Below, piece after piece: positions 3,126-60,465 of a stretch of 64,000 bases of DNA (positions within the stretch are counted from its first letter, which is position 1; each line of letters opens with the position of its first letter). Under the pieces are notes generated by a model, which was not told the origin of the DNA, did no database searches, and worked only from the letters and a program-made list of their open reading frames with translations. This stretch comes from a virus, in the IMG/VR virus record IMGVR_UViG_3300045988_181536, positions 96,001-160,000 of that record, one strand, 5' to 3'. The position numbers were made by a program, and so were the translations under genes.

Positions 3126-5722
3126 ATATGATAATAAAATCTTTACATTTAAAAAACTTCGGACAACATTCCGATTTATTTTTGGATATTAAAGGTCCTG
3201 TAATAGGCATAGTGGGGCGTAATGGATCTGGTAAATCGACTATTGTTTCTGCTTTGCAATATGCATTTACCGGAGAAACTACCAATAATATTCAAACGTA
3301 TATTAAAAAAGGCGAAACTTCCGCCGAAGTAGAAGTTATATTTGAGAAAAACGGTAAAACAGGCGTTATTAGACGTGGCATTAATACCAGAACTACTACC
3401 AGAAGTCTGACCTATGGTGATCTTATTCAAAAGCCTATTACTAAAGCTAAAGAATTTGACGCCATGATGGATCAAATTTTGGGAGTAGATAAACAAAATA
3501 TCTTAAGCGCTATATTTATTGCGCAAGGAGAAATTGCCAATATTCTTAGTCCGAGACTTTCGGAACGACTGGGCTTGTTTGCCAAATTGTTAAATTTAAA
3601 TTTCTTGTCCAAAAGATCTTACGTAGTTGACCAGACTTTAAATAAACTGAGATCTTCCGTTACAGATGTTGGCAGTTTAAAAAATAATTTGGAAGTTAAA
3701 ATTGAAAATTTAAAATCCAAAAACGAAGCCTGGGAATCTGCAGTTCAGGAAGCAAATGCGAAATATGTTAGCGCAACCTTTGTCAAAGATATATGGGAAT
3801 CCGCATCAAATTATATTCATGCTCAAAATGAGCATACACGATGGGAAACTAAATATCAAGAAGCATTAGCAACTCTTGTTGAACAAAAAAATAAGCTAAC
3901 CTCTGTAGCTGCAATTGCAGGGGTAGATGAATCTACGCTTATTCCTAGTATTACGACACAAATCGAAAGCTTAGAAAGTCAATTTAACGAAATAAGCGCA
4001 TTTTTAAAAAATCAACAGCTGATTATTGACGCTTGGAATAATTTAGTTTCAGCCAGAGAAGAAAATAAAATATTTAACCAGCTAAAGACCACGGTGTTTG
4101 CTGACGTACCACCTGACGTTGTGGAAACGACTGTGAGTGAATTTGACGAGTATCAAAACAACACAACCAAATTTGAAGATTGTTGCCTAAAATCCGAAAA
4201 GTGGAAAAACAAACTGTCTGAACTTGAGCAAGATATAAACAAAGCAACTTCCAAGATACAACAGGCAGAGGCCGCTATTCCTCGATTGGATCAACAAAGA
4301 AATAACTTGTGTTCAGTTGTGGCACAGCTAGAAACGCTGGCGAAAACCAAGCAGAAGCTAAAAGACAAGGTTAACAAAGATACTGCCAGCTGTCCTGTAT
4401 GCGGTCTAAAACTGATGCTTGGACAAGAGGTTTGTGATGGAGATATTGAAAGCATAAAACAAAATATTCAAACGCTTCAAACATCCCAGATTCAGCCCTT
4501 GGAAATACAGTTAAAAGAGGCAACTTCTCTAAAAGTAAACAATGGAGCTATCTTAAGAGTTTCAGAGCAAGAATTTAAGCGTATAAAAGCGGACTATGAT
4601 GAGTGCCAAACGCTTATGGTAGAACTGAAGTCTAAAATAGATGCTTATAAAAACGACTGGCCGAAAATTACACAAACTATTTACACAGTAAAAGAAAAGT
4701 TGCCTGAATATAAAGTGTTGTGGGAAAAAAATCAACGCAACACTTTGCAGGATATGATTGATCAAGTAACCAAAACCTTACAATCATTTAATCTTGATGA
4801 AAACAACATAGATGTCGTCAAATTAAAAGAAATTGTCAGCGCAAAAGAACAAGAACTGTCTAAGCTAAGGTCTGAAATATCTAATAAAAAAGATTTGTTA
4901 AGTAGGGCCACTACGATTACAGGGTCTATTTCTGCGCAGGAACAAGAAATATCTAAAACTCAAGAGACTATATCGCAGCTTAATCAAAATCTAAAAAATC
5001 ATAAGCTAAAACAAATACGCGATACACTTGAGCAAGATATAAAAAATGCCTATATTCTGGAAACGTTTAACCACTTCGTAATGATTCCTGAGGTGCAAAC
5101 AATTGCATCTGCAGCTGTGGATGTATATAATCAGCTAAATGCTGAAAAACAAGTCATTGATAATTTGCAGCAGCAGATTGACAATGATAAAAACTTGATC
5201 AATAAACTAGAAGCTGAGAATGCCAAGGTTTATGGTGAAGTTGAAGAATTGGCACGCATAAAGCAACTCTTGCAACCTCAAGACGGCGTAATTAAAAACT
5301 ATATCAATTATTTGTTTAAGTCGATTTCCGGATATATCAGCGAGTATTTGGCGTATATGAATGCCAACTTTATCATTCAAATTGAAGATAGAGCGACTGA
5401 AGAAGACTTGTCATTTAAGTTCCAAAGAATCGATAAGCCTAACGACAAATATTGGTACCCAATGTATCAATTGTCAGGTGGTCAAAAGATTAAGTTGTCC
5501 ATAGCGTTTCAATTAGCTATTCAGAAAATTATTTGCCCTGATTTAGGATTCTTGGTTTTAGATGAACCTACTACTCATTTAGATGAAGAATCCATAAAAG
5601 CGCTTAGCGAACTCTTGGAAAATGTCGGAAATATGTTAACCGGACAAAACGGTCAAGTATGGATCATTGATCATAACCATATCATAGACAAAGCATTTAC
5701 GACTGCAATTAACCTAGATTAG
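3089..5722 (+). CDS. sbcC: SbcC/Rad50-family ATPase (T4 gp46-like)
   Basis: N-terminal Walker A 'GRNGSGKST'. Long coiled-coil middle with a zinc hook 'CPVCG'. C-terminal ABC signature 'LSGGQK' and Walker B 'LVLDEPTTHLD'. The true start is probably ATG 3128 ('MIIKSLHLKNF'). Confidence 0.85.
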   Translation: MRKRSHLHLGKINMIIKSLHLKNFGQHSDLFLDIKGPVIGIVGRNGSGKSTIVSALQYAFTGETTNNIQTYIKKGETSAEVEVIFEKNGKTGVIRRGINTRTTTRSLTYGDLIQKPITKAKEFDAMMDQILGVDKQNILSAIFIAQGEIANILSPRLSERLGLFAKLLNLNFLSKRSYVVDQTLNKLRSSVTDVGSLKNNLEVKIENLKSKNEAWESAVQEANAKYVSATFVKDIWESASNYIHAQNEHTRWETKYQEALATLVEQKNKLTSVAAIAGVDESTLIPSITTQIESLESQFNEISAFLKNQQLIIDAWNNLVSAREENKIFNQLKTTVFADVPPDVVETTVSEFDEYQNNTTKFEDCCLKSEKWKNKLSELEQDINKATSKIQQAEAAIPRLDQQRNNLCSVVAQLETLAKTKQKLKDKVNKDTASCPVCGLKLMLGQEVCDGDIESIKQNIQTLQTSQIQPLEIQLKEATSLKVNNGAILRVSEQEFKRIKADYDECQTLMVELKSKIDAYKNDWPKITQTIYTVKEKLPEYKVLWEKNQRNTLQDMIDQVTKTLQSFNLDENNIDVVKLKEIVSAKEQELSKLRSEISNKKDLLSRATTITGSISAQEQEISKTQETISQLNQNLKNHKLKQIRDTLEQDIKNAYILETFNHFVMIPEVQTIASAAVDVYNQLNAEKQVIDNLQQQIDNDKNLINKLEAENAKVYGEVEELARIKQLLQPQDGVIKNYINYLFKSISGYISEYLAYMNANFIIQIEDRATEEDLSFKFQRIDKPNDKYWYPMYQLSGGQKIKLSIAFQLAIQKIICPDLGFLVLDEPTTHLDEESIKALSELLENVGNMLTGQNGQVWIIDHNHIIDKAFTTAINLD

Positions 5723-15335: not shown

Positions 15336-15407
15336 TCCCAGGTAGCTCAGCGGTAGAGCGGACGACTGTTAATCGTTTGGTCGATGGTTCAATCCCATCT
15401 CTGGGAG
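15336..15407 (+). tRNA. tRNA-Asn (anticodon GTT)
   Basis: Cloverleaf read by hand. Acceptor 'TCCCAGG/TCTGGGA', D-arm 'GCTC-AGCGGTA-GAGC', anticodon stem 'GACGA/TCGTT' with loop 'CTGTTAA' (GTT), T-arm 'GATGG-TTCAATC-CCATC'. CCA is not encoded. Confidence 0.85.
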
Positions 15408-15409
15408 TA

Positions 15410-15722
15410 GATTTTTGTTCTTTTGCAATTTCTCGGACAATGGGCGTTTTAGGGATAGCGACCCTACCCCTGCCTATAGGGGAATGATAATAACTATCAG
15501 TGAAAACGCGAGTAGCTATCGTAGGAGGGACGTATGAATGTTCCCTTGAAATATGAAACTGATGCCCGATACCGGCGAGTCATGGCTTATCGATAGCGCC
15601 TTGGCTTCGTTTTGCGGTTGAGAATAGGCGTCCGAGCCCTTTTTTAGATCGACATAATTGTTTCCAAAAGTTGAGAGTTCTGATTCCCATAGCGCATAGA
15701 GTGTCTATGCGCTATTTTATTG
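15410..15722 (+). ncRNA. candidate structured non-coding RNA immediately 3' of the tRNA, ending in a terminator
   Basis: ~300 nt with no ORF and locally higher GC. Multiple hairpins: 'cccctgcctatagggg', 'gatagc...gctatc', 'ggcgagtcatggcttatcgatagcgcc'. It ends in a perfect 12-bp stem terminator. Confidence 0.3.
15689..15722 (+). terminator. intrinsic terminator (12-bp perfect stem 'atagcgcataga/tctatgcgctat' plus T-tract)
   Basis: Perfect inverted repeat with a 3-nt loop followed by 'ttttattg'. Confidence 0.6.
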
Positions 15723-15848
15723 TCCAAAAACAAGTTAAGATTCAAGGTTTAAAAGTCCTTTTCATTAAGGACTCCTTGAATCGCCTTGTTTTTACTTTAA
15801 TATTTATTCTTATTTTTTTTAGATATAACATTTAAACCCTTAGAAATT

Positions 15849-16073
15849 ATGTATAAAAGCTCACCATTTATCTTGAACCTTCAAGCCACATTAATTGATC
15901 CCTCTTTTTCCAAAGAAGCAAATATTGGAGAGTGTATCCGAATAATTGTAAACAAATGTAAAGAAAATGAAGAAATTGCTGAAGCTTGGGACTTTCTCCA
16001 AGATTATGCTAAAGCATTTAAAAAAGATAACCCTAACGCAAGTATTATGCTGGGAGATATATTTGAAATCTAA
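15849..16073 (+). CDS. hypothetical protein
   Basis: ORF only. Confidence 0.3.
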   Translation: MYKSSPFILNLQATLIDPSFSKEANIGECIRIIVNKCKENEEIAEAWDFLQDYAKAFKKDNPNASIMLGDIFEI

Positions 16074-16088
16074 AAATAATCTACCACA

Positions 16089-16640
16089 ATGTCGGCAAGT
16101 TTAGAAGATATCAGACAATATTTTATTAAACGTCAACGTGAGCGCAATAAATTTTACAAATTATTGCCTAAGTTTGATCAAATAGAAGTTTGGCAAAAAC
16201 TTGCCGATAATTGCAAAAAACTGGATGTAACGGAAAAGTTTTATATAGATTTTGTTTTTGATGAACTTGCTAATGCAAGACAAACGATTTTTCCAAAAAC
16301 ACTTTTAAATTCAAAAATCATTGGAAAAATTAAAATTTATCAAGAAACCATCGGAAAACAAATACAACTAACCGCAAAAGAATATGTTGATCAAGAATTT
16401 CAAAAAGCTTTTTCGGCTATTAAAAATTTTCTGCAAACGCATCCAGGATCATCACATTTAACGGTCTTACGCATGGCGGGATTTCAAATTCCTGCATGGC
16501 TAAGACTATCTTTAGCTCCTACAGACCCTAAAGTATACACGCATTATATAGCGGAAGCGAGAAAAGAGCTTGCAAATATCAAAGGTCTAAAGGAAGCTAT
16601 CGAAGCTACAAAGGGATTATTAAACACCTCATGGATTTAA
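16089..16640 (+). CDS. hypothetical protein (directly upstream of the helicase; a helicase loader is possible but unsupported)
   Basis: ORF only. Confidence 0.3.
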   Translation: MSASLEDIRQYFIKRQRERNKFYKLLPKFDQIEVWQKLADNCKKLDVTEKFYIDFVFDELANARQTIFPKTLLNSKIIGKIKIYQETIGKQIQLTAKEYVDQEFQKAFSAIKNFLQTHPGSSHLTVLRMAGFQIPAWLRLSLAPTDPKVYTHYIAEARKELANIKGLKEAIEATKGLLNTSWI

Positions 16641-18199
16641 ACTCCCCAAAACCACAGCCAACTGAAACAAATGATGCAATTGCCGTTACAGAAAATCCGG
16701 CAATTAAAAGTTTGGTGCGTAGTAATACCAGAATGTTTGAGCAGTATTTAATGGCTGCAATGATTTTAAGTTATGATTTTTGGAGAGTTTACTGTAAGGA
16801 CAGAATTAACGCTAGAATAAGCTCCCACAGATCATACGAAGATTTTAGTAAAAGCGTATATAACAATATTTATGACGGAATTTGCACGTTTTATAACACT
16901 TTATCCGACAAAAACGACCCAAATAGTTCTTCAATTACCCAAGTCGATGTAAGCTTTGTTAATAGTCTTTTAAAAGACCAGATGTATCTGGGACAAATAA
17001 GTATTGAAGACACGAAATTTGCCGAAGAAAGTTTAAATGAAATTGTCCAGTTAATTAACAATTCTGCCGGAAACAATGATGTTATTTTTAATTTTGCCAA
17101 ATCCGGTTTTGCATTTTGGCTGGAATTAAGACGAGTATCCCAGATAACTGAAAAGTCGTTTAATACAAAAATAACGGCTGATGAATTAATTAATAAACTT
17201 AAATCAGCTACAGATGGATTAGATGTAGATGATTCTACGTTTATGTCGTTTAATGACGCCGTGGACTTTGAAGACGTAGATAATGGCGGTTATCGTATGC
17301 CCGTGGCTACATTGCCTATTTTTACAAGAGTATTAGCCGGAGGATTAAAGAAAGGCGAAACTGGCATTGTTGCGTCACTGCCTTCGGGAGGAAAAACAGT
17401 TTTTGCATGTCAGCTTGCCGTTGGGTTGGCCTTAAATGCTTTTAAGGTATTATTTATTTCAACTGAGCAACATGCTGTTAATCTCGTGCCGAGATGTGTT
17501 AGTCTTAGCACAAATATACCTTTTAGTTTAATAAATGATGGCATTAAACATGCTGTTAAAAATAGCAAATTAAATGACCAACAAATAACCGAAATAAAGG
17601 AGTTTACACAGTTAGTGCAACCTTATCTTTATTTTGAAAATTGGGGATTAAAGGGTAATAAGATAACAAGCAGTTTAGAACATGCCATTGAAAAATTTAT
17701 AGAAGTTAATGGCAGTTTGGATGTTGTTATTATTGACTGGATAGGCGGTGGCATTGAAAAACCTCCGGAAGATCGCGCCAAAAAGCACGAGTATTATGAC
17801 TATACCATGAAATACATTTGCAAGGTTATGAAACAAAAACATCTTGCAGGAGTGGTTATGGCACAGGTTAATCCTAAACAAGCGGAAAATGTCGCAATGA
17901 TTACCATTAACGAACTGGCCGATTGTAAAACACTAGACCAAGATGCTTCTTGGGCATTGGGTATCTCGCGTTTAGAGAATCCTAAAACTCGTGTATCAAA
18001 TCAAATCCAAGCTTCGTATAAAACGCAACAAACGTTTAACTTTTGGAAAAACCGATTGTCTCCGCCGTATCATTATCCCGTGCTTCGTGATTTTGCTTAT
18101 CAAAGATTTGCGGAAAAAGAACAAGCAAGTCCTATGACAAATGTGGCGACCAAGGTTGAACTTGGCAGTATGGATACATTAAACATTAAGCCAATTTAA
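16631..18199 (+). CDS. DnaB-family replicative helicase (RecA-fold ATPase)
   Basis: H1/Walker A 'LPSGGKTVFACQLAVGLAL', H2/Walker B 'VVIIDWIGG', H3 'VVMAQVNPKQAE' (conserved Gln), H4-like 'ELADCKTLDQDASWALGISR'. Confidence 0.65.
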   Translation: MDLNSPKPQPTETNDAIAVTENPAIKSLVRSNTRMFEQYLMAAMILSYDFWRVYCKDRINARISSHRSYEDFSKSVYNNIYDGICTFYNTLSDKNDPNSSSITQVDVSFVNSLLKDQMYLGQISIEDTKFAEESLNEIVQLINNSAGNNDVIFNFAKSGFAFWLELRRVSQITEKSFNTKITADELINKLKSATDGLDVDDSTFMSFNDAVDFEDVDNGGYRMPVATLPIFTRVLAGGLKKGETGIVASLPSGGKTVFACQLAVGLALNAFKVLFISTEQHAVNLVPRCVSLSTNIPFSLINDGIKHAVKNSKLNDQQITEIKEFTQLVQPYLYFENWGLKGNKITSSLEHAIEKFIEVNGSLDVVIIDWIGGGIEKPPEDRAKKHEYYDYTMKYICKVMKQKHLAGVVMAQVNPKQAENVAMITINELADCKTLDQDASWALGISRLENPKTRVSNQIQASYKTQQTFNFWKNRLSPPYHYPVLRDFAYQRFAEKEQASPMTNVATKVELGSMDTLNIKPI

Positions 18200-18268: not shown

Positions 18269-20584
18269 TCAGAATACAAAGGCTTTCCTTATTTCATCCA
18301 TCAAGTTATTATGGTTTTCCCTAATGGTATTTGCGCATACCTGAAGATAAGCGGGATACCACTTAATGTTGGATGTGCCCTTTGATACAACATTTTTCAT
18401 CCAAGAAGTAAAGTATCCTATAAAAGATACGTGGTCAATTGCATTCTTGAAATCCTTAAAGCAATCGGCATATAAGCTGCCTTTTCCGGTGCCGAAGGTT
18501 TTATGTACAGCCAAAGCTACAGCTTCAAAGATTTGTTGAATATAGGGCGTTTTGTCACAATGACCTTCAGCCATTTCAGTAAACAATATTTGCAGAATAT
18601 TTGACAAATGGTCATAAATCGCAGCTTTATCTTTGCAACGGAAACCTAAGAAACGGGTATTTATAGGTCCTTGATAAAGCGGATGACCTTGATAATCCGG
18701 CAGATCATTCTCTACAGGCATATTGTTAATATACTCCACAACCTTTGGAGGCAGCTGATCTAAATTTCGCAGAAGACGCAGTGACTGCATGCTGTGAATT
18801 AAGCGCTTGGGGAACAACGCCCTGCTTTCATGACCGAATAAGTCGCAAATCCTAAGTTTCTCTTCCATAGGAATGCTGTTATATTTTTCATGTCTGCAAA
18901 GATAAGAGCACATGCTCCTATGCCACCAGTTAGGCATAACATCCGCCTTTACATTCGGATTTTTATTTAACTGATCCGCGTGTAAAATCTTTTGATAATC
19001 ATTTATAAATTCATCCAACAAAGACTTAGGTTCAGGAATAGATCCAGGGAACAAAGCGTCCTCTGCCATAATAACTTCAAGCGTAGGACGGAAACGCTGT
19101 ACTTTGCCTATGCTGCGAACATTTTTCCGAAGTTCTTTAAGTTCTTCAATGGCCTCATTTAAATCTATTTCATATTCGCTTTTATTTATTCCAGTCCAAG
19201 CATTTCCTGGCTGAATAGGAAATACCTTTTCAGGTTCTTGATTTAACCTTGCGGCCTTTTCTGCAATTGCCTTCTGCCTTTGTTCGAAAATGGTTATGCT
19301 GTAATCTATTGCTTCCTGAATGTCTTTAATATGGTTGCTGCGACGTTCCAGAGATTTAAAAAACCTAAACGGAGCCAAATAAACCGCATGCAAAGATTCG
19401 CTTAAAAATCTATAACTCATCACTGAAGAGAATTGTTTTTCAGGACGAATATATTTTCCAAGATAACGCTTGCTTATGGACTTAAGATCCTTTTGAAATC
19501 TTTCCCATTTGCGGCATTTATCCGCTTGAATTGTATCCTCTAAAGATTCTGTGCCCTGGGGCTTGGCTGGAGGAGACCATTTGAGGGCTTTTCTGTCCAC
19601 CTCCATATAGTCTATTATGGTTTTATTGGAATCATTTCCTGTATGTGCGCTGCAAGCAACTCTAAGTTCATTCAACATCTTCCAATAGCTTTTTTTGCAG
19701 AATCTGCCACCCATAGAATTGATAAGATTCTTAAGATAAAGAATATTGGGAAGATGATGCTGTATATCACCTTCTCGCTTACGTTCTAAATCAAGATAAA
19801 GCGAATGATAAAACTTGGTTCCGTGAAGCTTATTGGATATGAACTTGAAATTCATCATTACCGCCATATTCGGATTTGACGGGCAATAATCCAAAGACAT
19901 GTCTAAGAGATGAAGCGCATGTGTATCTGCCAAGGAGCAATGATTGTAATTGGCATATTGTATGCGCTTTAATTGAGGATTATAACCTGCAAAAAACTTA
20001 ACAGACTTAAGCCCCCTTTCTGGAACATTGCAACGACGATCAGATAAAGTCCAGCCGTAACCGTTGGTGGCTTTAGGGTTTTTTTCAGCCCATTCCTTCT
20101 CAAGCTGTGCTCTTTTCTGAGCACGTTCCTTTGCCTGTTGCTCCTTTTTTAAGGCTGCTTCTTTTTCCAGCTTTTCCTTTTTTAAAGCCTCTTCCTTGGC
20201 CTTTCTTCTCTCTGCAAGCATCTGTTGATAGATTGCTCTGCCTTTTGCAATAGCTTGTCTTCTACGCTCTCTGTCTTCTTCGGAGATATTTAAAGGCTTA
20301 GTGACTTTGTAACCCTTGGGGCGTCGAAAACGATATTTGTCCAACTTGGCTTTAGCTAATTCTAAAACTTTTTCTGAAACCGTATATTTCCTCTTGCCAG
20401 TTTTCGTGGCTCTATCTGCAGCCACTAAATTCATGCAACATTGTACTAAAGTTTTTTGATTTGCTTTAAGCTTATCTTGATCCAAACGTCCAGTTCCACC
20501 CCCGCGAGCTCTGTGCACCTTCTCGTTCAGGATGCTCTTAGACATATCGCAGTATTCTTCTGTATTACCAATAGTTGTTGCCAT
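18269..20584 (-). CDS. hypothetical 771-aa protein with a Lys/Glu coiled-coil segment; the only large minus-strand gene besides tnpB
   Basis: 'KAKEEALKKEKLEKEAALKKEQQAKERAQKRAQLEKE' coiled coil. No catalytic motif recognised. It is transcribed divergently from the 1.2-kb non-coding hub. Confidence 0.5.
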   Translation of the reverse strand: MATTIGNTEEYCDMSKSILNEKVHRARGGGTGRLDQDKLKANQKTLVQCCMNLVAADRATKTGKRKYTVSEKVLELAKAKLDKYRFRRPKGYKVTKPLNISEEDRERRRQAIAKGRAIYQQMLAERRKAKEEALKKEKLEKEAALKKEQQAKERAQKRAQLEKEWAEKNPKATNGYGWTLSDRRCNVPERGLKSVKFFAGYNPQLKRIQYANYNHCSLADTHALHLLDMSLDYCPSNPNMAVMMNFKFISNKLHGTKFYHSLYLDLERKREGDIQHHLPNILYLKNLINSMGGRFCKKSYWKMLNELRVACSAHTGNDSNKTIIDYMEVDRKALKWSPPAKPQGTESLEDTIQADKCRKWERFQKDLKSISKRYLGKYIRPEKQFSSVMSYRFLSESLHAVYLAPFRFFKSLERRSNHIKDIQEAIDYSITIFEQRQKAIAEKAARLNQEPEKVFPIQPGNAWTGINKSEYEIDLNEAIEELKELRKNVRSIGKVQRFRPTLEVIMAEDALFPGSIPEPKSLLDEFINDYQKILHADQLNKNPNVKADVMPNWWHRSMCSYLCRHEKYNSIPMEEKLRICDLFGHESRALFPKRLIHSMQSLRLLRNLDQLPPKVVEYINNMPVENDLPDYQGHPLYQGPINTRFLGFRCKDKAAIYDHLSNILQILFTEMAEGHCDKTPYIQQIFEAVALAVHKTFGTGKGSLYADCFKDFKNAIDHVSFIGYFTSWMKNVVSKGTSNIKWYPAYLQVCANTIRENHNNLMDEIRKAFVF

Positions 20585-20763
20585 AATCGTTGTTTTAAAT
20601 TTTTCGTTATCTTTTCAAATTTTTATTATCCAATCAAGAAAAATTTTCTTAAAACCTGTAAAATTTTTAATAAGTATATAAAAATTAATGAGTTAAAGTT
20701 AAAATTTTTCTGATTCATGGTTGTTTATGTTGAATTTTAGGATTAGTGTGCCTTATTGGAAGA

Positions 20764-20786
20764 ACCTATTACTATTTCTGAATAGC
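20764..20786 (+). repeat. 23-bp direct repeat copy 1 'acctattactatttctgaatagc' (internally palindromic ctatt...aatag)
   Basis: Exact 23-nt match with 21548-21570. Confidence 0.9.
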
Positions 20787-20791
20787 TAATC

Positions 20792-20912
20792 GGCCAACTT
20801 TTTGGTTAACATGGCGAGAGCGTAGCCCTCGCCTACACTCTGCATGTTAAATGTTAAAGATGCTTTAATGTTACAAATTAAAAGTCAAACATTAAAGATA
20901 AAAAAGTTGGCC
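20792..20912 (+). promoter_or_regulatory. structured element with a 12-bp long-range inverted repeat 'ggccaacttttt...aaaaagttggcc' enclosing nested palindromes (ttaacatg/catgttaa; ctttaatgtt/aacattaaag) and a GC hairpin 'ggcgagagcgtagccctcgcc'
   Basis: Read directly from the sequence. No ORF. Confidence 0.5.
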
Positions 20913-21547
20913 TTTACGAACCTCTCATGTTCATGCCATCGGTCAACGCCCGATGTCACTTTTTCCGTTACTAAGATCTTGCGCCCCTACGGGGCGCTGG
21001 CGGAACCCCTGTAACTCCGCAATTTTTACGAAAATTGGCGCGAAAAACTGTTTAAATTCTCCAAAATTACATAGGAAAAAATGTGTCATTGCTAAAAATT
21101 GCAGTGCATTTGCCCGCTGTAAATAGACTAAAAAATAGCCAAATGATCAAAACGGAAATCTGGAACAATAGCTATATGCAGGAAAAAATGGGCTTAGAAT
21201 CTTTTTTAAATTTAAAGGTATATAAATATATAGCCTAAAAGCTAAAAATCATTTTTAAGGGCGTTTATTCGCGTTTTTTAATTTTATCGCTGGGTCAGAA
21301 CTAAATCCCTAAAAGCTGTATTAAGGGAGATTGCGTTATATCAAAAGTCGCCATGATAGCTATTATAAAAACGCTAAGTCTATTATACTGTGAAAATAAG
21401 CCCTAATTTCCCTTCCCCTGCACCCCTACCTTTGAATGAATATATTTTTATCTTCGAATTAACATTCTCGATAAAAAGCTTTTTATATTCTATCTGCATA
21501 AATGCATCTAGCATATAAAAAGAAAAATTATTAACATAATTTTTTCT

Positions 21548-21570
21548 ACCTATTACTATTTCTGAATAGC
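21548..21570 (+). repeat. 23-bp direct repeat copy 2
   Basis: Exact match with 20764-20786. Confidence 0.9.
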
Positions 21571-21572
21571 AA

Positions 21573-21628
21573 AATAGTATTACCTTCGGAACTGCGTTCC
21601 TGCGGTAATACTATTTATTTTCTTTTTT
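21573..21628 (+). terminator. strong intrinsic terminator or 3' end of a long non-coding RNA
   Basis: 12-bp perfect stem 'aatagtattacc/ggtaatactatt' with an inner 'ggaac/gttcc' helix, followed by 'tattttctttttt'. Confidence 0.65.
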
Positions 21629-21811
21629 AAAGGTGTTAAAATTTAAAGAGAAGAATCTTAAAAGAATTAGAGAAAAAATAACCAAAATTTAAAATGACAA
21701 TAAAACACCATACAATAATCCTAAATTAAAAAGCGATTATTGCATATCCATTAAGTAAAATTTTTTAAATAAAAAAAAAACAAACCATGTGTAAGTGTCA
21801 ATAGAAATTTC

Positions 21812-23182
21812 TTGATTAGTAAATCAATCCCATGCTTCAATCTATATCCCACAATGAGCACAGCTAAAACCTACATACTTGATGACAGATTATTAAAAAT
21901 AGATCTGTCCGCTTTGGAAAAAACATGCACAGCATTGAATTTTAAGTTAAGTCAACAAATACAAAGATTAGTTACGCGATTGCTTACAGTACATTTTACA
22001 GGCAAGTTGCATGTCATAGATCATAACCATTTGGAATTATCATTGCCTGATCCAGAATTATTGCAGGATGATGGTCCTAAAGAGTTAATGTCCAAGCATC
22101 TTTATGTAAACTTATCAAAATTTGCAGCAGAGGGTCATAATTGCGCTGCACGCTGTGTTAAAACCAATCGGTTTTATAATATAAAGGATTTGTTGGAAAT
22201 GCGTCCCATAGGATTAAGACATAAAGACAAGTCTTATAAATGGTATATAACTTGGGATCCGGATAAATTTTTAAAGAATTATAAAAATAAAGATTTATTG
22301 ACCTCTTCTTTAGTATTTAATTCCGAAGATGCTTTAGAGAATAAATGGATTTCTCCCGGCACATGCATTCCACTAAATAAATTGCCTGTATCCCATCCTG
22401 CAGTCTCTTATTTAAATGACAGGGGTTATACAGATATGGATGCTCTTGTCCGCCAGTTTAACGCTTCGTTTTGCACTGAGGAAAACCCGCAACTTAAACA
22501 TCTAAAATTCGGTAAGGATACTGAAGGCTATATAATTGACCCTTTTAAATTCTTTACCCCTCAAGGGTGTATTATTTTTACCGCTTTTCAATTAGGCCAG
22601 CCTAAATTATGGCAAGCAAGAATTTTAGATAAAAAATTAGGCAATGATAAATTGCATTATATGCATTTTGTCAATGACCCATTTAAAAGAATAAGCGGGT
22701 ATTATAAAGTAGCCGAAAAAGACGCTACAGGTAAATACATACCTTTACAGGGTGTGTCTGATTCCATTATAAAAAGAAAATATTATTTATCTCCAGGTTC
22801 TAAGGCCGGTAATGTTTTGATGGGTTATGATGCCGCGAGAGAATTTAATTTATCCCGTCCGTCAGGGAAGAAAGTTATAGGGCTTTGTGAAGGCGTTTTA
22901 GATGCTGCCAGAATGGGGCCGCCGTTTTGCGCTTATTTGGGAGGCGCTTTGTCCGTAGGACAGCTAAAATTAATTAGCAATGGCATGTTTGATAAAATAA
23001 TTCTTGCCGTAGACCATGATAAAGTCGGAAGCACTACGGCAGCTAAGTTGAGGCGTAGCATTTCTATGCTGGGAGGAATTGATATAGATGAATTAGACTA
23101 TCCTTTGAAGTTTAAAGATTTAGGAGAAATAACCGACAATAACCTGATTTTAGACTTAAAAAAACAATACGATTTATCTTGA
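21812..23182 (+). CDS. DnaG-like DNA primase (Toprim domain)
   Basis: Toprim 'CEGVLDAARMG' (E-G-x-x-D) and 'ILAVDHDKVG' (DxD). It lies between the helicase and the polymerase genes. Confidence 0.6.
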   Translation: MISKSIPCFNLYPTMSTAKTYILDDRLLKIDLSALEKTCTALNFKLSQQIQRLVTRLLTVHFTGKLHVIDHNHLELSLPDPELLQDDGPKELMSKHLYVNLSKFAAEGHNCAARCVKTNRFYNIKDLLEMRPIGLRHKDKSYKWYITWDPDKFLKNYKNKDLLTSSLVFNSEDALENKWISPGTCIPLNKLPVSHPAVSYLNDRGYTDMDALVRQFNASFCTEENPQLKHLKFGKDTEGYIIDPFKFFTPQGCIIFTAFQLGQPKLWQARILDKKLGNDKLHYMHFVNDPFKRISGYYKVAEKDATGKYIPLQGVSDSIIKRKYYLSPGSKAGNVLMGYDAAREFNLSRPSGKKVIGLCEGVLDAARMGPPFCAYLGGALSVGQLKLISNGMFDKIILAVDHDKVGSTTAAKLRRSISMLGGIDIDELDYPLKFKDLGEITDNNLILDLKKQYDLS

Positions 23183-23217: not shown

Positions 23218-26200
23218 ATGGAAGAACAAGTAAAAACAAAAACCACGGATAATCCGGATCCGTTTACGAATGAGTTTTCCCGACAGATTTGGGAAGTAAC
23301 CTATAAAACGCAAAATGAAAAGAGTATTACAGATACGTGGAAACGTGTGGCAAATGCTGTAGCCAATGTAGAAAAGGATGAAGAATCCAAAAGATTTTAT
23401 GCTGAGGCTTTTTATGAGATTTTAAAAGATTTTAAGTTTATACCCGGAGGTCGTATATTGGCCAATGCAGGGGGTAGTTGTAAGAATGTCTCTCTCGTCA
23501 ACTGTTATCTCTCACCTGCTCCCAAATACGACATGGATTCCGTTGAAGGAATTATGGAGGTATTAAAGAACCAGGTTTTAACTTTAAAATCTGAAGGAGG
23601 CTGGGGTTTAAATTGTAGTTTTATTCGTCCCAGAGGTTCTTATATAGAAGGCATAGGTGCCAGAACCCCCGGTGCTGTAAAGTATTTGGAGCTGTTTGAT
23701 AAAAGTTCCGAAATTATTACGGAAGGTCCAGGAGAGTATTACATAGAGAATAAAGAAAAAACGCCTAAGAATGAAAAGAAGAAAATTCGCAAGGGTGCAA
23801 TGATGCTTTGTTTAAGCTGCTGGCATCCTGATATATACGAATTTATTACTGCCAAACAAAAGCCGTTTCATCTAACTAAAATGAATATGTCCGTAAATGT
23901 TACCAATGCTTTTATGGATATTTTAAATAGAGTTAACGAGCTTGTTAAAAACAATGCTTCGCAGGAAGAAATCGATGCTGTTGATTTTTGGCAATTGAGA
24001 TTTCCTGATACGGCTTTTGAAAAGTATAAATCCGAATGGGATGGAGACTTGGATAAATGGGAGAAAAAAGGTTATCCTGTAAAAGTTTATCGTACAGTAA
24101 GGGCTACTGATCTATGGGAAGCCTTAATGCAGTCTACCAGCAATCGTTCGGAGCCTGGAGTTTTATTTCTCGATAGGGCAAATGAGACACATTGCGCAAA
24201 TTATATCCCTGAGTTGCAATTAGTTGGGACAAATCCTTGTCTTACTGGAGATACCAAAGTTGCTGTTGCTGACGGGCGTACAAATGTGACTATTAAAGAG
24301 TTGGCCGAAGCTGGCAGAGATGTTCCGGTGTTAGCTTGTGATAATGCTGGCAATATTGTTACAAAGTTAATGCGTAATCCTCGTATTACAGGCTATAATA
24401 AAGATATTTATCGAGTGACTTTAGATGATGGTAATCATATTGATTGCACGTCTAATCATAAGTTTAGATTGTCTGATGGAACATATAAAGAGGTAAAAGA
24501 TTTATCAACAGGTGTAGCTTTGCACACAAATACGTTAAGTGTAGAAGAGTATAAACGTTATTTAGTGCAGGAAGTTTTAAATACGGAAATTACCCCTAAT
24601 CTTCAGCTTGATTCCGTACAACAACTGTGTGAAGAAGCAAAGTCTCAGGGTTATGAGGTAAAAATAGATAATAACATAGTTTTGGTTAAGAGGGTTTGTG
24701 AGGAATGTGGAAAAGAACATTTTGTTCCATTTACTCATCGCGAAATTGCGTTTTGTTCTCTGGAATGTTTAAATACCCATTTGAATAAAGAAAAAATCGC
24801 TGCCAAAACCACAAATACTGATTTAGATGTAATATCTGCTGAGGATTGGCCTGTAAGGTTTGTTTCGTCTATTGAATATATAGGCAAACAAGATGTCTAT
24901 ACCGGTACAGTTGATGATGTGCATAATTATTGCGTTGGGATGTTTGAAACTGTGAATGAACATGGACATCCAAAATTTTATATACTTAATAATCAGCAGT
25001 GCGGAGAGCAGGTTTTATACAGCGGAGGATGCTGCAACTTAGGATCCATCAATCTTACGGCATTTATAGAGTACGATGAAACTAAACATGCCGCCGTTTT
25101 TAACTTTCAGAAGTTCTCTGATATTGTTCCTTATTGCGTAAGATTCTTGGATAATGTCATAGACATTGCCAATCTGCCTTTGGAAGAATATAAATATATG
25201 GCTGAAAGTTATCGAAGAATCGGGCTTGGTATTACAGGCATAGGCTCTGCTTTAATGATGTTGGGTCTAAAATACGATTCTAAGGAAGCTAAAGACTTTT
25301 TAACTAAAGTTTTTGATGTTTATAATTTCTTAGGGATAAGGGCAAGTATCGCTTTAGCTAAATGTAAAGGTGCGTTTAAAGGATGCAATCCTGCAAAACA
25401 TGCTGATAATATAAAATATACGTTTAGACATTTACCGAAGTATATATTGGATGCTTTGCAAAAAGAATTGTTAGAAACTAACGGCATCCGCAATTCAGCC
25501 TTGTTCTCAGTCCAACCGACAGGCAATACAGGGTGTCTAGCCAATAATATTTCAGGCGGTGTGGAACCTGTGTTTCAGTTAGAATACTACAGAATTGTTG
25601 GAGTGCCGATTGTTCCTGAAAGCATAAAAGATAAATGTCCTAGGTTCTGGGAGGGGGATTTTACTCCGAACAATTATTTCAAAGAAGTTAAATACGCAGA
25701 TTTTACTTACTTGTCTTACGTAACTGAAGCTGGCCAAGAATATCAGATACATAAAGATAGAGGTCTGTGTGAAAAAGTAAAAATTCGAGATTATGCTTAC
25801 CAATGGATCTTGGATCATAATTTAGAATATCCACAGGAAGTTTTTACAACAGCTATGCAACTACCTGTTGAATCTCATTTGGAAATTCTGAAATTAGTAT
25901 CTGCACATTTGGATTCCGCTGTAAGTAAAACGATAAATGTTGGCAAGGATTACCCTTATGAACAGTTTAAGAATGTTTATTTAGATGCATATAATAGCGG
26001 AGTAATAAAAGGAGTTACGACTTATCGTGAGGGTTCTATGAGTGCAGTATTGCAAACTACGGATTCGAAAGATGACGTAAATCCTACATCTACATCGATT
26101 ATTCATCCTACTATTACTGCTGAGAAACGTCCTGATATATTGCCGTGTAGAGTATTTTTTAGAACGGTAAAAGGAATATCTTATTACTTTATTGTAAGTT

Positions 26201-26664
26201 TCTTGGAAAATAGTCCGTTTGAGATGTTTATTGACATAAATGAAGATAACATTTTTGACGAGGATGGAGAATGGGTTGAGCGCCGTCGCATTATACCCAA
26301 GACTGTAAAGGAAGGAACTTTAAAGAAGTTGGGTAAGGCTACGTTCGAGTTTGTATCTAAAGATGAGAAATTTATATTTAAAATTGTAAAAGCCAATGAG
26401 TCTTCAGATAAAGCCACATTAACAGCCCTTGCTCGTTTGGTGGCTTTGAATTTGCAGTCCGGTGTATCAGTGAAAGAGATAATACATCAGCTATCTAAAA
26501 CCGAAGGGGATTTTACTTCAATTGTGAAAGCAATTAACAAAGTATTGTCTCAGTGTGCTGGTAAAGTTGATCTTGGAGAAACATGCCCTGTTTGCGGAGG
26601 TAAAGTGTTACGTGAAGAGGGATGTAAAAAATGCTATGCATGTGGATGGTCTGCATGCGGCTAA
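23218..26664 (+). CDS. ribonucleotide reductase catalytic subunit, probably class II (NrdJ-like, monomeric) with a C-terminal zinc ribbon, interrupted by an intein at the NPC active-site motif
   Basis: 'SEGGWGLNCSFIRPRGSYIEG' loop. 'EPGVLFLDRAN...VGTNP|C' then an intein. The extein resumes 'CGEQVLYSGGCCNLGSINL'. C-terminal 'CPVCGG...CKKCYACGWSACG'. No NrdB is adjacent. Confidence 0.8.
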   Translation: MEEQVKTKTTDNPDPFTNEFSRQIWEVTYKTQNEKSITDTWKRVANAVANVEKDEESKRFYAEAFYEILKDFKFIPGGRILANAGGSCKNVSLVNCYLSPAPKYDMDSVEGIMEVLKNQVLTLKSEGGWGLNCSFIRPRGSYIEGIGARTPGAVKYLELFDKSSEIITEGPGEYYIENKEKTPKNEKKKIRKGAMMLCLSCWHPDIYEFITAKQKPFHLTKMNMSVNVTNAFMDILNRVNELVKNNASQEEIDAVDFWQLRFPDTAFEKYKSEWDGDLDKWEKKGYPVKVYRTVRATDLWEALMQSTSNRSEPGVLFLDRANETHCANYIPELQLVGTNPCLTGDTKVAVADGRTNVTIKELAEAGRDVPVLACDNAGNIVTKLMRNPRITGYNKDIYRVTLDDGNHIDCTSNHKFRLSDGTYKEVKDLSTGVALHTNTLSVEEYKRYLVQEVLNTEITPNLQLDSVQQLCEEAKSQGYEVKIDNNIVLVKRVCEECGKEHFVPFTHREIAFCSLECLNTHLNKEKIAAKTTNTDLDVISAEDWPVRFVSSIEYIGKQDVYTGTVDDVHNYCVGMFETVNEHGHPKFYILNNQQCGEQVLYSGGCCNLGSINLTAFIEYDETKHAAVFNFQKFSDIVPYCVRFLDNVIDIANLPLEEYKYMAESYRRIGLGITGIGSALMMLGLKYDSKEAKDFLTKVFDVYNFLGIRASIALAKCKGAFKGCNPAKHADNIKYTFRHLPKYILDALQKELLETNGIRNSALFSVQPTGNTGCLANNISGGVEPVFQLEYYRIVGVPIVPESIKDKCPRFWEGDFTPNNYFKEVKYADFTYLSYVTEAGQEYQIHKDRGLCEKVKIRDYAYQWILDHNLEYPQEVFTTAMQLPVESHLEILKLVSAHLDSAVSKTINVGKDYPYEQFKNVYLDAYNSGVIKGVTTYREGSMSAVLQTTDSKDDVNPTSTSIIHPTITAEKRPDILPCRVFFRTVKGISYYFIVSFLENSPFEMFIDINEDNIFDEDGEWVERRRIIPKTVKEGTLKKLGKATFEFVSKDEKFIFKIVKANESSDKATLTALARLVALNLQSGVSVKEIIHQLSKTEGDFTSIVKAINKVLSQCAGKVDLGETCPVCGGKVLREEGCKKCYACGWSACG
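24238..24999 (+). mobile_element. intein (~254 aa) inserted in the RNR NPC|GE motif; contains a Cys-rich insert, possibly a degenerate endonuclease
   Basis: N-terminal splice block A 'CLTGDTKVAV', block B 'TSNH', block F 'VYTGTVDDVHNY'. The apparent C-terminal junction is '...ILNNQQ|CGEQ', where the terminal Gln is unusual. The insert is 'VCEECGKEHFVPFTHREIAFCSLEC'. Confidence 0.65.
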
Positions 26665-34338: not shown

Positions 34339-34653
34339 ATGCTTCGTATTTGTCCATGTGATGGCATAATCATAATGGATAAGGCTTTATTAGAGTTAGT
34401 GAAACAAAAAAAGCTTACTTATCATAAGGCATTGACGGACGAAAAATATAGGAAATATGTCTATTGGTATGAGGTATATTCTCTATCAACAGATGAAGAT
34501 AGCCAATCAGACTGTGCTCGAGAATCGAGATTTGACAATTTAAAATCAAAATTTGCTCGACGAAAGCTGTCACGGTTATATCAAGCTATAGAATTTCGAC
34601 GACGAACGCGCAAACCTTGTGATCAAAATAAATCTTCAAAGCGTACATCATAA
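34339..34653 (+). CDS. hypothetical basic protein; its 3' end overlaps the first tandem-repeat copy
   Basis: ORF only. Confidence 0.3.
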   Translation: MLRICPCDGIIIMDKALLELVKQKKLTYHKALTDEKYRKYVYWYEVYSLSTDEDSQSDCARESRFDNLKSKFARRKLSRLYQAIEFRRRTRKPCDQNKSSKRTS

Positions 34654-34865
34654 TCGGCACAAGACAAATACCACCTATCTCTTCAGGTAGGTGCCCTCAC
34701 TAAAAAACCAGAACTTGACATTCTTGGACATCGGGAGGCCACGCCACTAATAACGTACATCATAATCGGCACAAGACAAATACCACCTATCTCTTCAGGT
34801 AGATGCCCTCACTAAAAAACCAGAACTTGACATTCTTGGACATCGGGAGGCCACGCCACTAATAA
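34642..34865 (+). repeat. perfect tandem duplication, 2 x 112 bp (one mismatch: ggtaggtg versus ggtagatg)
   Basis: Unit 'cgtacatcataatcggcacaagacaaataccacctatctcttcaggtaggtgccctcactaaaaaaccagaacttgacattcttggacatcgggaggccacgccactaataa' at 34642-34753 and 34754-34865. It contains a hairpin 'cacctat...taggtg' and a TTGACA hexamer. Confidence 0.9.
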
Positions 34866-34892
34866 CGAAAGGTTTATATACAGCAAAAATAC

Positions 34893-57099: not shown

Positions 57100-58380
57100 A
57101 GAAATTCATATTCTATTTAGTCAACTACTAATCATACAAGCTGATTAGCTTGTAACTAGGTATTACTACCCGCTACAATAGGCTTGTTGACGGAAGCCCG
57201 AAAGTTATTTGCTATATTGATAGCTGCATTTAAATCTGCATTGCATTCAAATCCACATTTCTTACACTTGAAATGGGATTGTGTAGTTCGATTGCCTTTA
57301 ACGGTATACCCACATCTACTGCATTTTTGCGATGTATAACGAGCATCAACGTGTTGAACACTACAGCCCTTAGCTAATGCTTTGTATGTTAGGAATTGCT
57401 CTAGCTGGAAGAAACTCCACGAATTTACTTTAGCCCTTTCGGACTTTCGCAATTTGCTACTACGATCTCTAATACCATCTAGTTTTTCAAGAACTATAGT
57501 AGTACCGGGAACGCACATAGAAACAATATTCTTACTAATACAATGATTCATATCCGTAACGAAACGGTTCTCCTTCATACTTAATGTACGGAGGTGTCTT
57601 TTAGCGGATTTAGAACCCTTGGATTGTAGTTTGGATCTTAAAATAGCATAGCGTTTCTTTACTTGTAGAACATGTTCTCCAGAGAAGATAGTACCATCAG
57701 ATAGTGTAGCTATATTGACTATGCCTCGATCTATACCGAGTACATTATCATTGGAACATTGCACATCCTCAACCTCCTTCTCAAATATGATGTGTAGGAA
57801 TAATTTGCCTTTCTTTAATGAGAGTGTAGCACCTTTCCTACGCCACGAGAAGTATTGTTTAAAGTGGTCTGTTAGATTTACTTTAAATCGTAATCTACCA
57901 TTCAATGTTAGGATAGAAACCTCGAAACGATCGAACCATATATTAAAGGAGTTCTTAGTTAATCTTAAAGCCATTTGTTTGGATTTAGGACATTTGAATT
58001 TCTTATGTTTCTTTCGTTCTAGTTTCGTAGTGGCTTTGATGGCTTCCGCTGCCTGATCCCGAACTTGTGTAGCGAGATCAGCTGGTAGTGAGAATTGTGT
58101 TCTACAATAATCATAGGTTTGATCGTGAAGCTTTCGTTTATCAAAATTACGATCCTTGAAACCTATTTCACAAATATAGTTATACGCCTCAGTATAGGCT
58201 CGAAATGTAGGAAGTAAATCGGTAGGATTTACGTTCTCTAGCTTAAGCTTTACTGTGCGGAGTAATTTCATTTAATAGTTAATATATTCATATATTAATA
58301 TAATAATGTCAACAACAAATACTTCAAAACACTAAACAATAGAAAGGAGACTTCCGAAATTCCTTGCAATAGACAATCTA
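57100..58380 (-). mobile_element. solo IS200/IS605-family (IS1341-like) element encoding TnpB only; boundaries approximate
   Basis: A minus-strand tnpB lies in an otherwise plus-strand region. A hairpin 'caagctgattagcttg' (57138-57153) sits directly 3' of the tnpB stop. Nested hairpins 'ccgaaattccttgcaatagacaatctattgcgtatcctttcgg' (~58345-58390) sit on the 5' side. No tnpA is present. Confidence 0.55.
57156..58271 (-). CDS. tnpB: TnpB (OrfB) RuvC-like RNA-guided endonuclease family protein
   Basis: RuvC-I 'GIDRGIVNIATL', RuvC-II 'IVLEKLDGI', zinc finger 'CSRCG...CKKCG', RuvC-III 'NADLNAAINIA'. Confidence 0.85.
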   Translation of the reverse strand: MKLLRTVKLKLENVNPTDLLPTFRAYTEAYNYICEIGFKDRNFDKRKLHDQTYDYCRTQFSLPADLATQVRDQAAEAIKATTKLERKKHKKFKCPKSKQMALRLTKNSFNIWFDRFEVSILTLNGRLRFKVNLTDHFKQYFSWRRKGATLSLKKGKLFLHIIFEKEVEDVQCSNDNVLGIDRGIVNIATLSDGTIFSGEHVLQVKKRYAILRSKLQSKGSKSAKRHLRTLSMKENRFVTDMNHCISKNIVSMCVPGTTIVLEKLDGIRDRSSKLRKSERAKVNSWSFFQLEQFLTYKALAKGCSVQHVDARYTSQKCSRCGYTVKGNRTTQSHFKCKKCGFECNADLNAAINIANNFRASVNKPIVAGSNT

Positions 58381-60391: not shown

Positions 60392-60412
60392 ATTAAACCT
60401 AATAGACAACTA

Positions 60413-60458
60413 ACGTAATAAAAAGGAGCCAAATAACGTAATAAAAAGGAGCCAAATA
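60413..60458 (+). repeat. 23-bp tandem repeat x2 (+8-nt partial) 'aacgtaataaaaaggagccaaat' that duplicates an SD-containing leader
   Basis: 60413-60435 and 60436-60458 are identical, and 'aacgtaat' follows before the ATG at 60466. Confidence 0.85.
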
Positions 60459-60465
60459 ACGTAAT

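Follow-up and report, generated by a model that had tools for sequence, protein, structure and literature searches.

A repeat-bracketed non-coding cassette in the replisome gene cluster of uncultured phages: a candidate transcribed replication-control element

The window analysed here is a 64,000-nucleotide stretch of viral DNA (positions 96,001 to 160,000 of the IMG/VR record IMGVR_UViG_3300045988_181536) from a phage that is known from metagenomes only and whose genome measures about 165–177 kb. Between the divergent genes for a 771-residue protein (ORF771) and a DNA primase, the window contains what appears to be one conserved non-protein-coding cassette (20764-21628), which we tentatively interpret as a transcribed cis-acting element of replication control, most likely a transcription-activated origin. 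The design of this cassette is kept across phage lineages: an exact repeat is followed by 0.46–0.78 kb without a gene, by the same repeat and by a hairpin, all of it within the replisome gene cluster. While the general kind, i.e. a non-coding element of a phage replication module, is already known, the cassette fits no known family.

A cassette design kept across phage lineages

Gene content was read within the 64-kb window of the ~173-kb genome, and protein family scans covered its 57 open reading frames (ORFs) of at least 90 amino acids. The initial annotation had singled out the region as the largest ORF-free stretch of the window, situated between divergent genes, and both statements hold: it is the biggest gap between ORFs of at least 90 amino acids, with ORF771 encoded on the minus strand and the primase on the plus strand. 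Taking the ATG at 21854 as the primase start, as annotated in relatives, yields a protein of 442 residues and an ORF-free stretch of 1,269 bp (20585-21853).

The two ends of the cassette are marked by an exact 23-mer, ACCTATTACTATTTCTGAATAGC, and the two copies reported in the initial annotation lie where it had placed them. No third copy occurs in the window even when three mismatches are allowed, with zero expected in shuffles, and when the 1,269-bp region is shuffled, exact repeats reach 14 nt at most. The pair is also the window's only exact direct repeat of at least 20 nt at a spacing of 300–1000 bp. In 1.13 Mb of unrelated viral DNA, which served as a control, such pairs were present in 10 of 120 loci, mostly in clusters of duplicated genes and with about three solitary pairs. 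Exact copies of the 23-mer are confined to this locus in contigs of 103–173 kb, and a scan of IMG/VR for a 14-nt core returned chance matches only.

Relatives are designated below by the labels of their contigs or loci (L004, L008, L149 and so on); all of these sequences are metagenomic. Past the first six contigs, no further relatives were found in IMG/VR, and among GenBank phages there was neither a DNA match to the region or its surroundings nor a tblastn match to the helicase. Within the clade of the window, nine distinct versions of the interval were aligned. All nine contain the full interval with both repeat cores unchanged, and no single-repeat or empty site was found among them or among the other relatives with the slot between helicase and primase. 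The two copies share only the 21-nt core CTATTACTATTTCTGAATAGC in these close relatives, the first two bases of copy 1 being variable. Two blocks next to the repeats are 95–98% (20763-21040) and 98–99% (21361-21616) identical, alongside 97–98% for helicase and primase and 87% for ORF771 (L011 comparison), and a segment of about 40 nt in the middle of the interval is replaced in L004 and L024. The comparison with related genomes, which the initial annotation had proposed, favours function: close relatives keep the hairpins invariant, and distant ones keep the layout but not the sequence.

These distant lineages encode primases 45–76% identical to that of the window, and those other than L008 and L009 were gathered with a primase profile. 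In five lineages, the same helicase–primase slot holds an ORF-free stretch of 0.9–1.2 kb, each with its own exact direct repeat (Table 1). The repeats are 23–67 nt long, their spacings range from 457 to 784 bp and they are the sole such pairs in each locus of 11–13 kb. A strong hairpin begins 1–11 nt past copy 2 in the window, L008, L009, L149 and L150 (five sequences, representing four of the five lineages), and an AT-rich tract comparable to that of the window lies 5′ of copy 2 in L149, L151 and L154. The interiors of the cassettes have no significant blastn or tblastx similarity between lineages and no common motif order; since no sequence or RNA core is common to the lineages, a covariance model could not be built. 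Decay of the ORFans next to them is not the source of the interiors either, as sequence comparison shows.

Table 1. Exact direct repeats in the helicase–primase slot of the window clade and of distant relatives.
Sequence	Primase identity to window	Repeat	Repeat length	Spacing
Window clade	reference	ACCTATTACTATTTCTGAATAGC	23 nt	784 bp
L008	76%	ATCGAATATTCTTTATATAATCTAAAAGAAAC	32 nt	584 bp
L009	75%	ATACTGAATATTCTTTACATAATCTTAAAGAAAC	34 nt	579 bp
L149	69%	TAATATATATGATCTTATTACTAAGATCAC	30 nt	776 bp
L150	50%	TATATCTTTACCATTAAGAACAC	23 nt	662 bp
L151	45%	two interleaved pairs	32 and 67 nt	626 and 457 bp

How the two copies change over time can be followed in L008 and L009. Their repeats differ at about four positions, and every change is found in both copies of each genome, with the arms of the internal dyad spared. 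Four-fold degenerate sites of the flanking genes are 85–90% identical between the two genomes, the interior is 88% identical and the repeat agrees at 28 of 32 positions, so that the repeat drifts at about the neutral rate while its copies stay identical. This comparison of one genome pair (a third genome, L163, supplies copy 2 only) shows that drift in the repeat sequence leaves the two copies of a genome identical to each other. The cassette offers a clean natural case of two short sequences that change over long evolutionary distances and yet remain the same as each other. The L163 sequence itself, a Logan contig of a third L008-like phage, begins exactly inside the repeat (L163 1-70), which fits a 32-nt exact repeat breaking an assembly at k=31. 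Repeats of k-mer length or more thus break assemblies at this locus.

Across lineages, the repeats follow a common plan, in which an A/T-rich 5′ part precedes a dyad with covarying arms and a spacer of 4–10 nt. The dyads read CTATT-TCTG-AATAG in the window, GATCTTA-TTAC-TAAGATC in L149, TTTCTTT-GGAAAT-AAAGAAA in L154, TCTTTA-CCA-TTAAGA in L150 (with one stem mismatch) and TTCTTTA-CATAATCT-TAAAGAA in L009. Because the spacer of the dyad varies, a conclusion drawn from few independent changes, the repeats are suggested to act as nucleic-acid hairpins rather than as the site of a dimeric DNA-binding protein.

Internal architecture and a candidate origin function

The features of the cassette and its surroundings are collected in Table 2. 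Close behind copy 1 lies the 12-bp inverted repeat GGCCAACTTTTT/AAAAAGTTGGCC (20792-20803 and 20901-20912), which is 100% complementary, as had been annotated, and encloses the nested hairpins likewise described there, with ATGTTA(A) units at 20844, 20851 and 20868 and one unit on the opposite strand at 20806. At two of the few variable sites of the resulting 121-nt hairpin, the change (A-U to G-U and G-C to G-U) retains pairing on the plus strand only. In the hairpin that follows (20937-20965), eight of nine sequences have a G in place of the window's T, giving a seventh pair, and the GC hairpin further downstream was confirmed at its annotated position. Twin runs of four to five C residues, 3–4 nt apart, recur in the cassettes of L149 (~3518-3530) and L150 (~4207-4219). 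A small gene within the cassette was considered and rejected: a 43-aa ORF annotated on the minus strand of relatives lacks a ribosome-binding site, is of variable length and does not occur in L008.

Table 2. Features of the non-coding stretch and its flanking genes (window positions).
Feature	Position	Strand	Remarks
ORF771	18269..20584	-	divergent left neighbour, 771-aa ORFan; context only
AT-rich leader	20585..20763	.	ORF771 start to copy 1; 75-90% AT (40-bp bins); 20-bp x2 tandem repeat at 20593-20630; 90-100% identity to relatives
Repeat copy 1 (DR1)	20764..20786	+	exact 23-mer with internal dyad; 21-nt core invariant in 9 distinct relatives
Composite 121-nt hairpin	20792..20912	+	closed by the 12-bp inverted repeat; nested hairpins; -38.7 kcal/mol; near-invariant in close relatives
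Terminator-like hairpin	20937..20965	+	CATCGG(T/G)CAACGCCCGATG then TCACTTTTTC; from terminator scan
GC hairpin	20981..20997	+	GCGCCCC-TAC-GGGGCGC; invariant in 9 relatives
Variable mosaic middle	21041..21360	.	87-92% identity to relatives versus 95-99% for flanking blocks
C-run motif	21401..21426	+	CCCTAATTTCCCTTCCCCTGCACCCC; minus-strand G-quadruplex motif, sole canonical one in the 64-kb window
Three consecutive A/U-rich hairpins	21445..21544	+	75-85% AT over ~100 bp, directly 5′ of copy 2; hairpins unchanged except for one substitution in one relative
Repeat copy 2 (DR2)	21548..21570	+	exact 23-mer; invariant in 9 relatives
Intrinsic-terminator hairpin and T-run	21572..21628	+	hairpin 21572-21616 then ATTTATTTTCTTTTTT; outer stem of 13 perfect pairs, inner 5-bp helix
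AT-rich fast-evolving spacer	21629..21853	.	terminator to primase start; 81-89% identity to relatives; 72-90% AT; IS200/IS605 inserted here in L007
DNA primase (Toprim)	21854..23182	+	heads the primase / ribonucleotide reductase / DNA polymerase A gene run; context

The initial annotation had described the hairpin behind copy 2 as a terminator with a perfect 12-bp stem; its position and T-run stand, and the stem length needs correction (Table 2). A strict terminator scan calls the post-repeat hairpin of L150 and, in the window, the inner helix only. As this is a plus-strand hairpin terminator without an upstream plus-strand ORF, it implies a non-coding transcription unit. The corresponding hairpin differs between L008 and L009 by four compensatory pairs, and it tolerates many G-U/A-U changes on the plus strand only. 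Folding is far better than that of shuffled sequences (z = -6.4 and -5.3 for the plus and minus strands of the window, -7.8 for the plus strand of L008), and in L008 and L009 the plus strand folds about 22–25 kcal/mol better than the minus strand. In L163, the loop of the terminator is the reverse complement of that of L008 (TTTTA versus TAAAA), an inversion of the palindrome centre. An antiterminator formed by the 5′ half of the repeat and the 5′ arm of the terminator was rejected as a general feature: the pairing comprises 10 bp with a mismatch and is far weaker than the terminator, and nothing alike is apparent by eye in L008.

Under the interpretation as a transcribed origin, transcription would start in the AT-rich leader left of copy 1, proceed rightwards across the structured 5′ block, the variable middle, the C-run and the ~100-bp tract of A/T-rich hairpins, and stop at the terminator, so that it would not read through into the primase operon. 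The transcript, or its synthesis, would open or prime the A/T-rich tract before copy 2, allowing the helicase and primase encoded on either side to load. The two repeat copies would be twin recognition hairpins for one factor and mark both ends of the element, and their identity would be maintained by gene conversion, for which the RecA/UvsX-type and SbcC-type recombination proteins of the phage are the simplest agent. Both the location amid the replisome genes and the AT-rich tract ahead of copy 2 are in line with an origin, and this tract and the G-quadruplex/C-run motif are compatible with a role as DNA. The leader is the presumed site of divergent promoters (sigma-70-like matches in it are at chance level), and the spacer behind the terminator is the presumed promoter region of the primase operon.

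Of the systems already described, the origins of lactococcal c2-type phages (Ceduovirus) come closest. They are non-coding, flanked by two promoters and intergenic between divergent modules, they give rise to a non-coding transcript that is needed for replication, and they are >90% conserved within a type and without similarity between types (PMC7150918). Like the c2 arrangement of PE1, non-coding region, PE2 and PE1-T transcript, the cassette comprises several hundred ORF-free base pairs bracketed by two short elements in direct order, lies between divergent genes at the head of early or replication genes and combines high conservation within a type (here the 95–99% blocks) with no similarity between types. 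The two differ in that the bracketing elements of c2 are demonstrated promoters, whereas those of the cassette are exact repeats of 23–67 nt that a sigma-70 scan does not call and the second of which is followed by a terminator hairpin. Moreover, origin activity is demonstrated in c2 and predicted here, and the phages are unrelated.

More distant parallels come from origins at which a transcript is involved. The primary origin of T7 consists of the tandem promoters phi1.1A and 1.1B and an A/T-rich region, with two identical 23-bp promoter sequences, and T7 promoters recur throughout the genome. The T4 origins oriF and oriG combine a promoter with an unwinding element, and ColE1 uses RNA II, a structured RNA of ~550 nt, together with a family-A polymerase. 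In each of these, as proposed for the cassette, a transcript in or beside replication genes opens or primes an A/T-rich stretch, and the phage studied here encodes a family-A polymerase. To our knowledge, in none of the three does a terminator immediately follow the second repeat, nor are repeats separated by as much as 0.8 kb.

Several observations weigh against the cassette being a transcribed origin. First, promoters are not evident in the repeats with the tool used, whose models do not extend to Bacteroidota-type promoters. The sigma-70 scan finds a weak match at copy 2 of the window (9/12, with the -35 outside the repeat) and none on the plus strand in L008, L149 and L150; since it calls none of the repeats as promoters, a c2-like reading of them as two promoters is unsupported, and any transcript started at a promoter in copy 2 would run straight into the terminator. 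Shine-Dalgarno sequences precede few genes of the window, which hints at a Bacteroidota host; the promoter type of that group (TAnnTTTG) was rejected as well, with one non-conserved match in the region and no significant near-matches in the repeats. Second, the T-run is set 6–12 nt off the stem in L008, L009 and L149, making the terminator non-canonical there. Third, two copies 0.46–0.78 kb apart do not make an iteron array (at least three closely spaced iterons), no initiator protein was recognised and the adjacent ORFan differs between lineages. The initial annotation had suggested an origin or partition site with iteron-like repeats; of this, the position in the replisome cluster and the AT-rich tract speak for the origin, while the iteron array falls away and a partition site is unsupported. 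The GC skew of the window tracks gene orientation and is uninformative on an origin.

The distribution of the cassette adds two further points on the same side. L154, whose primase is 53% identical to that of the window, carries the two copies of its repeat (TATAT-TTTCTTT-GGAAAT-AAAGAAA) 579 nt apart in inverted orientation, and a second inverted pair is interleaved with them. At L154 1244-2250, the inverted pairs are ordered A, B, A′, B′, with 50 nt at 74% and 38 nt at 97% identity, there are no direct repeats, and a (TA)n-rich tract lies at 1516-1590. In relatives with a primase 44–45% identical to that of the window, the helicase abuts the primase and no cassette is present in the 9–10 kb examined, meaning that the cassette, if an origin, would be lineage-specific.

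For large uncultured phages, origins and non-coding control elements are almost unknown. The cassette is recognisable by its layout alone, i.e. an exact repeat, several hundred gene-free base pairs, the same repeat and a hairpin within a replisome cluster. Should it prove to be an origin, it would therefore provide a way to map origins in a clade without a cultured member or a detectable GenBank relative.

Alternative readings

The origin and the non-coding RNA that had been put forward in the initial annotation are the leading candidates, and they may be one and the same thing, namely a transcribed origin. That the cassette instead holds one or more genes for trans-acting RNA is rather doubtful. 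Such a locus would produce either one RNA of ~0.85 kb with a repeat hairpin near both ends, which a hairpin-specific nuclease might trim at the repeats in a repeat-spacer-repeat style, or two RNAs with a common terminator, and the targets would lie in the host or the phage (e.g. in takeover or anti-defence) and not in replication. The plus-strand terminator without an upstream ORF, the better folding than in shuffles, the compensatory pairs in the terminator and the wobble changes that fit the plus strand are all in keeping with this, as is the fact that structured domains start within a few nucleotides after each repeat copy and that a C-rich, apparently unpaired motif is found in three lineages.

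The case for an independent RNA is weakened by other properties of the sequence. In the window, the two strands fold equally well, and about half of the pairs that are changed between L008 and L009 break when a single-sequence fold of one is applied to the other. At 88%, the interior of these two lies in the range of their four-fold degenerate sites (85–90%) and thus near neutrality overall. The covariation term of RNAalifold is +1.86 in the window clade, which amounts to no covariation support; since the conserved blocks do not vary, however, they are uninformative on covariation, for or against RNA structure. At the gathering threshold of Rfam 15, the sole match in the window is a tRNA-Asn. 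Scans at E<=10 of 20400-22000 and of L008 5000-6050 gave sub-threshold chance matches only, and six loci of relatives gave tRNAs and one unrelated group I intron only. The Infernal check suggested for the region therefore returned no Rfam family, among them GOLLD, ROOL, OLE, HEARO, group I and II introns, ribozymes and CRISPR-DR. For the proposed ~800-nt structured RNA, the terminator would fit the defined 3′ end; Rfam, covariation and the nearly neutral interior give no support.

The large ornate RNAs of bacteria and phages (GOLLD, ROOL and OLE) share with the cassette a size of 0.6–0.9 kb, an association with phages and a strong predicted structure. They differ by having conserved cores and abundant covariation and by being represented in Rfam, whereas the cassette matches none of them and has no sequence or motif order in common between lineages. 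Immunity regions provide another parallel. In those of P4 (seqA/seqC) and P1 (a1b1/a2b2), direct repeats flank an antisense RNA gene, so that here, too, a non-coding RNA region, in that case one controlling termination, lies between two similar sequences of the same orientation. This design requires an internal sequence complementary to the repeats; none was found in the cassette, and with duplex energies at z = -1.3 to +0.9 relative to shuffled repeats, a P4/P1-like antisense mechanism was rejected.

It is also unlikely that the cassette is a recombination unit of a hyperplastic region comparable to the PeSL elements of T4-like phages. Units of repeat and stem-loop would then recombine and thereby shuffle, excise or insert DNA between helicase and primase, the identity of the copies would be a by-product of gene conversion and the interior would have little function of its own. 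PeSL pairs flank ORFans and form mini-circles (PMC2839356, PMC4122927), and like the cassette they combine a short conserved repeat with a stem-loop, belong to phages proficient in recombination, where they border on ORFans in hypervariable DNA, and are expected to homogenise and recombine (PMC2839356, PMC4122927). In five sequences from four lineages of the cassette, a hairpin sits 1–11 nt after copy 2. The slot is hypervariable, with unrelated ORFans of 263–987 aa on either strand across lineages; L007 has an IS200/IS605 insertion, the middle of the interval is a mosaic, the repeats evolve in concert, and the phage encodes RecA/UvsX-like and SbcC-like proteins.

PeSLs, however, recur many times in a genome, comprise promoters close to the sigma-70 consensus and border on protein genes. 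The cassette has two locus-specific copies (two in 64 kb at up to three mismatches), and its repeat has no recognisable sigma-70 promoter. Its non-coding interior, although direct repeats should recombine and readily delete it, has been lost in no relative, which argues that it is being kept. The sequence blocks on either side of the repeats are, in addition, as conserved as essential genes.

Quite unlikely is an undescribed class of element that works by terminal redundancy. Here, a transcript would carry the same hairpin sequence at both ends (R-X-R) and use it for copying or processing, with template switching, unit-length excision and circularisation of RNA or single-stranded DNA as conceivable uses. 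Such an element would explain the exact duplicates in every lineage, the drifting repeat sequence and the wholesale replacement of the interior. Retroelement-type versions of a terminally redundant RNA (resembling long terminal repeat elements, diversity-generating retroelements, retrons or DRT systems) were rejected, as no reverse transcriptase (RVT) family was found among the scanned ORFs of the window.

A site-specific DNA switch is highly improbable. The repeats would be the core sites of a recombinase, with excision between direct copies and inversion between inverted ones as in L154. Their dyad-spacer-dyad shape (e.g. that of L009) would suit such sites, partner sites must be identical and L154 has the equivalent repeat in inverted orientation. 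Against this, no integrase, resolvase or invertase family was detected among the 57 scanned ORFs (from 64 of ~173 kb), no excised form exists among the nine window-clade sequences or elsewhere, the spacer varies from 4 to 10 nt between lineages and identity extends over up to 67 nt, far past a core site. The notion that the 23-mers bound an inserted or excisable segment is likewise unsupported: every relative with the slot keeps the interval, no empty site was found and the scanned ORFs include no recombinase.

Least credible of all is a CRISPR-like mini-array or an RNA anti-CRISPR whose repeats mimic a host CRISPR repeat beside a terminator. The repeat length of 23–34 nt, the GAAAC at the end of the L008/L009 repeat and the hairpin within the repeat with a terminator directly after it, as reported of solitary repeat units (PMC10651486), recall such a design. 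The 'spacer' of 457–784 nt is far outside CRISPR sizes of about 30–40 nt, there is no match to CRISPR-DR models in Rfam and an exact-pattern search of 185,579 species-representative genomes did not find the repeat core; the L008/L009 pattern had two single-copy matches only, and the one checked is non-CRISPR. Finally, a non-autonomous derivative of IS200/IS605 (a palindrome-associated transposable element, PATE) was dismissed, since the ends of the insertion sequence (IS) in L007 and beside the TnpB gene of the window are unlike the repeat.

Neighbouring genes and further observations

The cassette lies in a gene order of DnaB-type helicase (16631-18199, plus strand), ORF771, the non-coding stretch and the primase. 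Ribonucleotide reductase with an intein and a UDG-exonuclease-PolA fusion follow 3′ of the primase, and the window further encodes SbcC/Rad50-like and RecA/UvsX-like proteins, helicases, ThyX, dUTPase and TnpB.

ORF771 has no match in Pfam, PHROG, NCBIfam, PADLOC or PDB, and its homologues among 1.8 billion representative proteins are restricted to this phage clade. Its AlphaFold model has a predicted local distance difference test (pLDDT) score of 50, with a long charged helix at about residues 100–170, and was judged too poor for a fold search. The homologue in L008 is 31% identical, as compared with ~75% for the flanking helicase and primase. The proteins that occupy the slot in L149, L150, L151 and L154 are unrelated to ORF771 and to one another, and in L149 and L151 the left neighbour is encoded on the plus strand. 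ORF771 as a conserved partner of the cassette was therefore rejected, being clade-restricted and replaced by unrelated proteins in the slots of other lineages. In L005, a 12-bp tandem duplication of GTTGCCATAATC (4757-4768, corresponding to window ~20577-20588) spans the start codon of ORF771 and creates two in-frame ATGs.

Mobile elements have left traces at several sites. The insertion in L007 (4397-6009) is a complete IS200/IS605 element comprising TnpA (133 aa) and TnpB (365 aa) and is located between the terminator of the cassette and the primase start. The window itself has a TnpB/Cas12f-like gene (57156-58271, minus strand), the 3′ flank of which (57100-57160) is near-identical to the end of the complete element. 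The gene for the large subunit of ribonucleotide reductase (23218-26664) contains its intein internally, and the relatives L006, L010, L011 and L017 differ at it by extra insertions of 1.2–1.6 kb and by LAGLIDADG or HNH domains, which marks this gene as a hotspot for selfish elements. The group I intron found in the Rfam scans (RF00028, 69 bits) is situated at L008 12965-13190, among the downstream replication genes of that lineage.

The second-largest gap of the window (15336-16088) starts with the tRNA-Asn gene (15336-15407), which is followed by ~680 bp without an ORF of at least 90 aa. Tandem repeats are present at two other places in the window. At 34642-34867, two tandem copies (99% identical) of an intergenic 112-bp unit with GC-rich, hairpin-like content precede a DEAD-box helicase gene. 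At 60407-60466, immediately 5′ of the ORF at 60466, lie 2.6 copies of a 23-bp unit, CAAATAACGTAATAAAAAGGAGC, with the Shine-Dalgarno-like sequence AAAGGAG in each copy.

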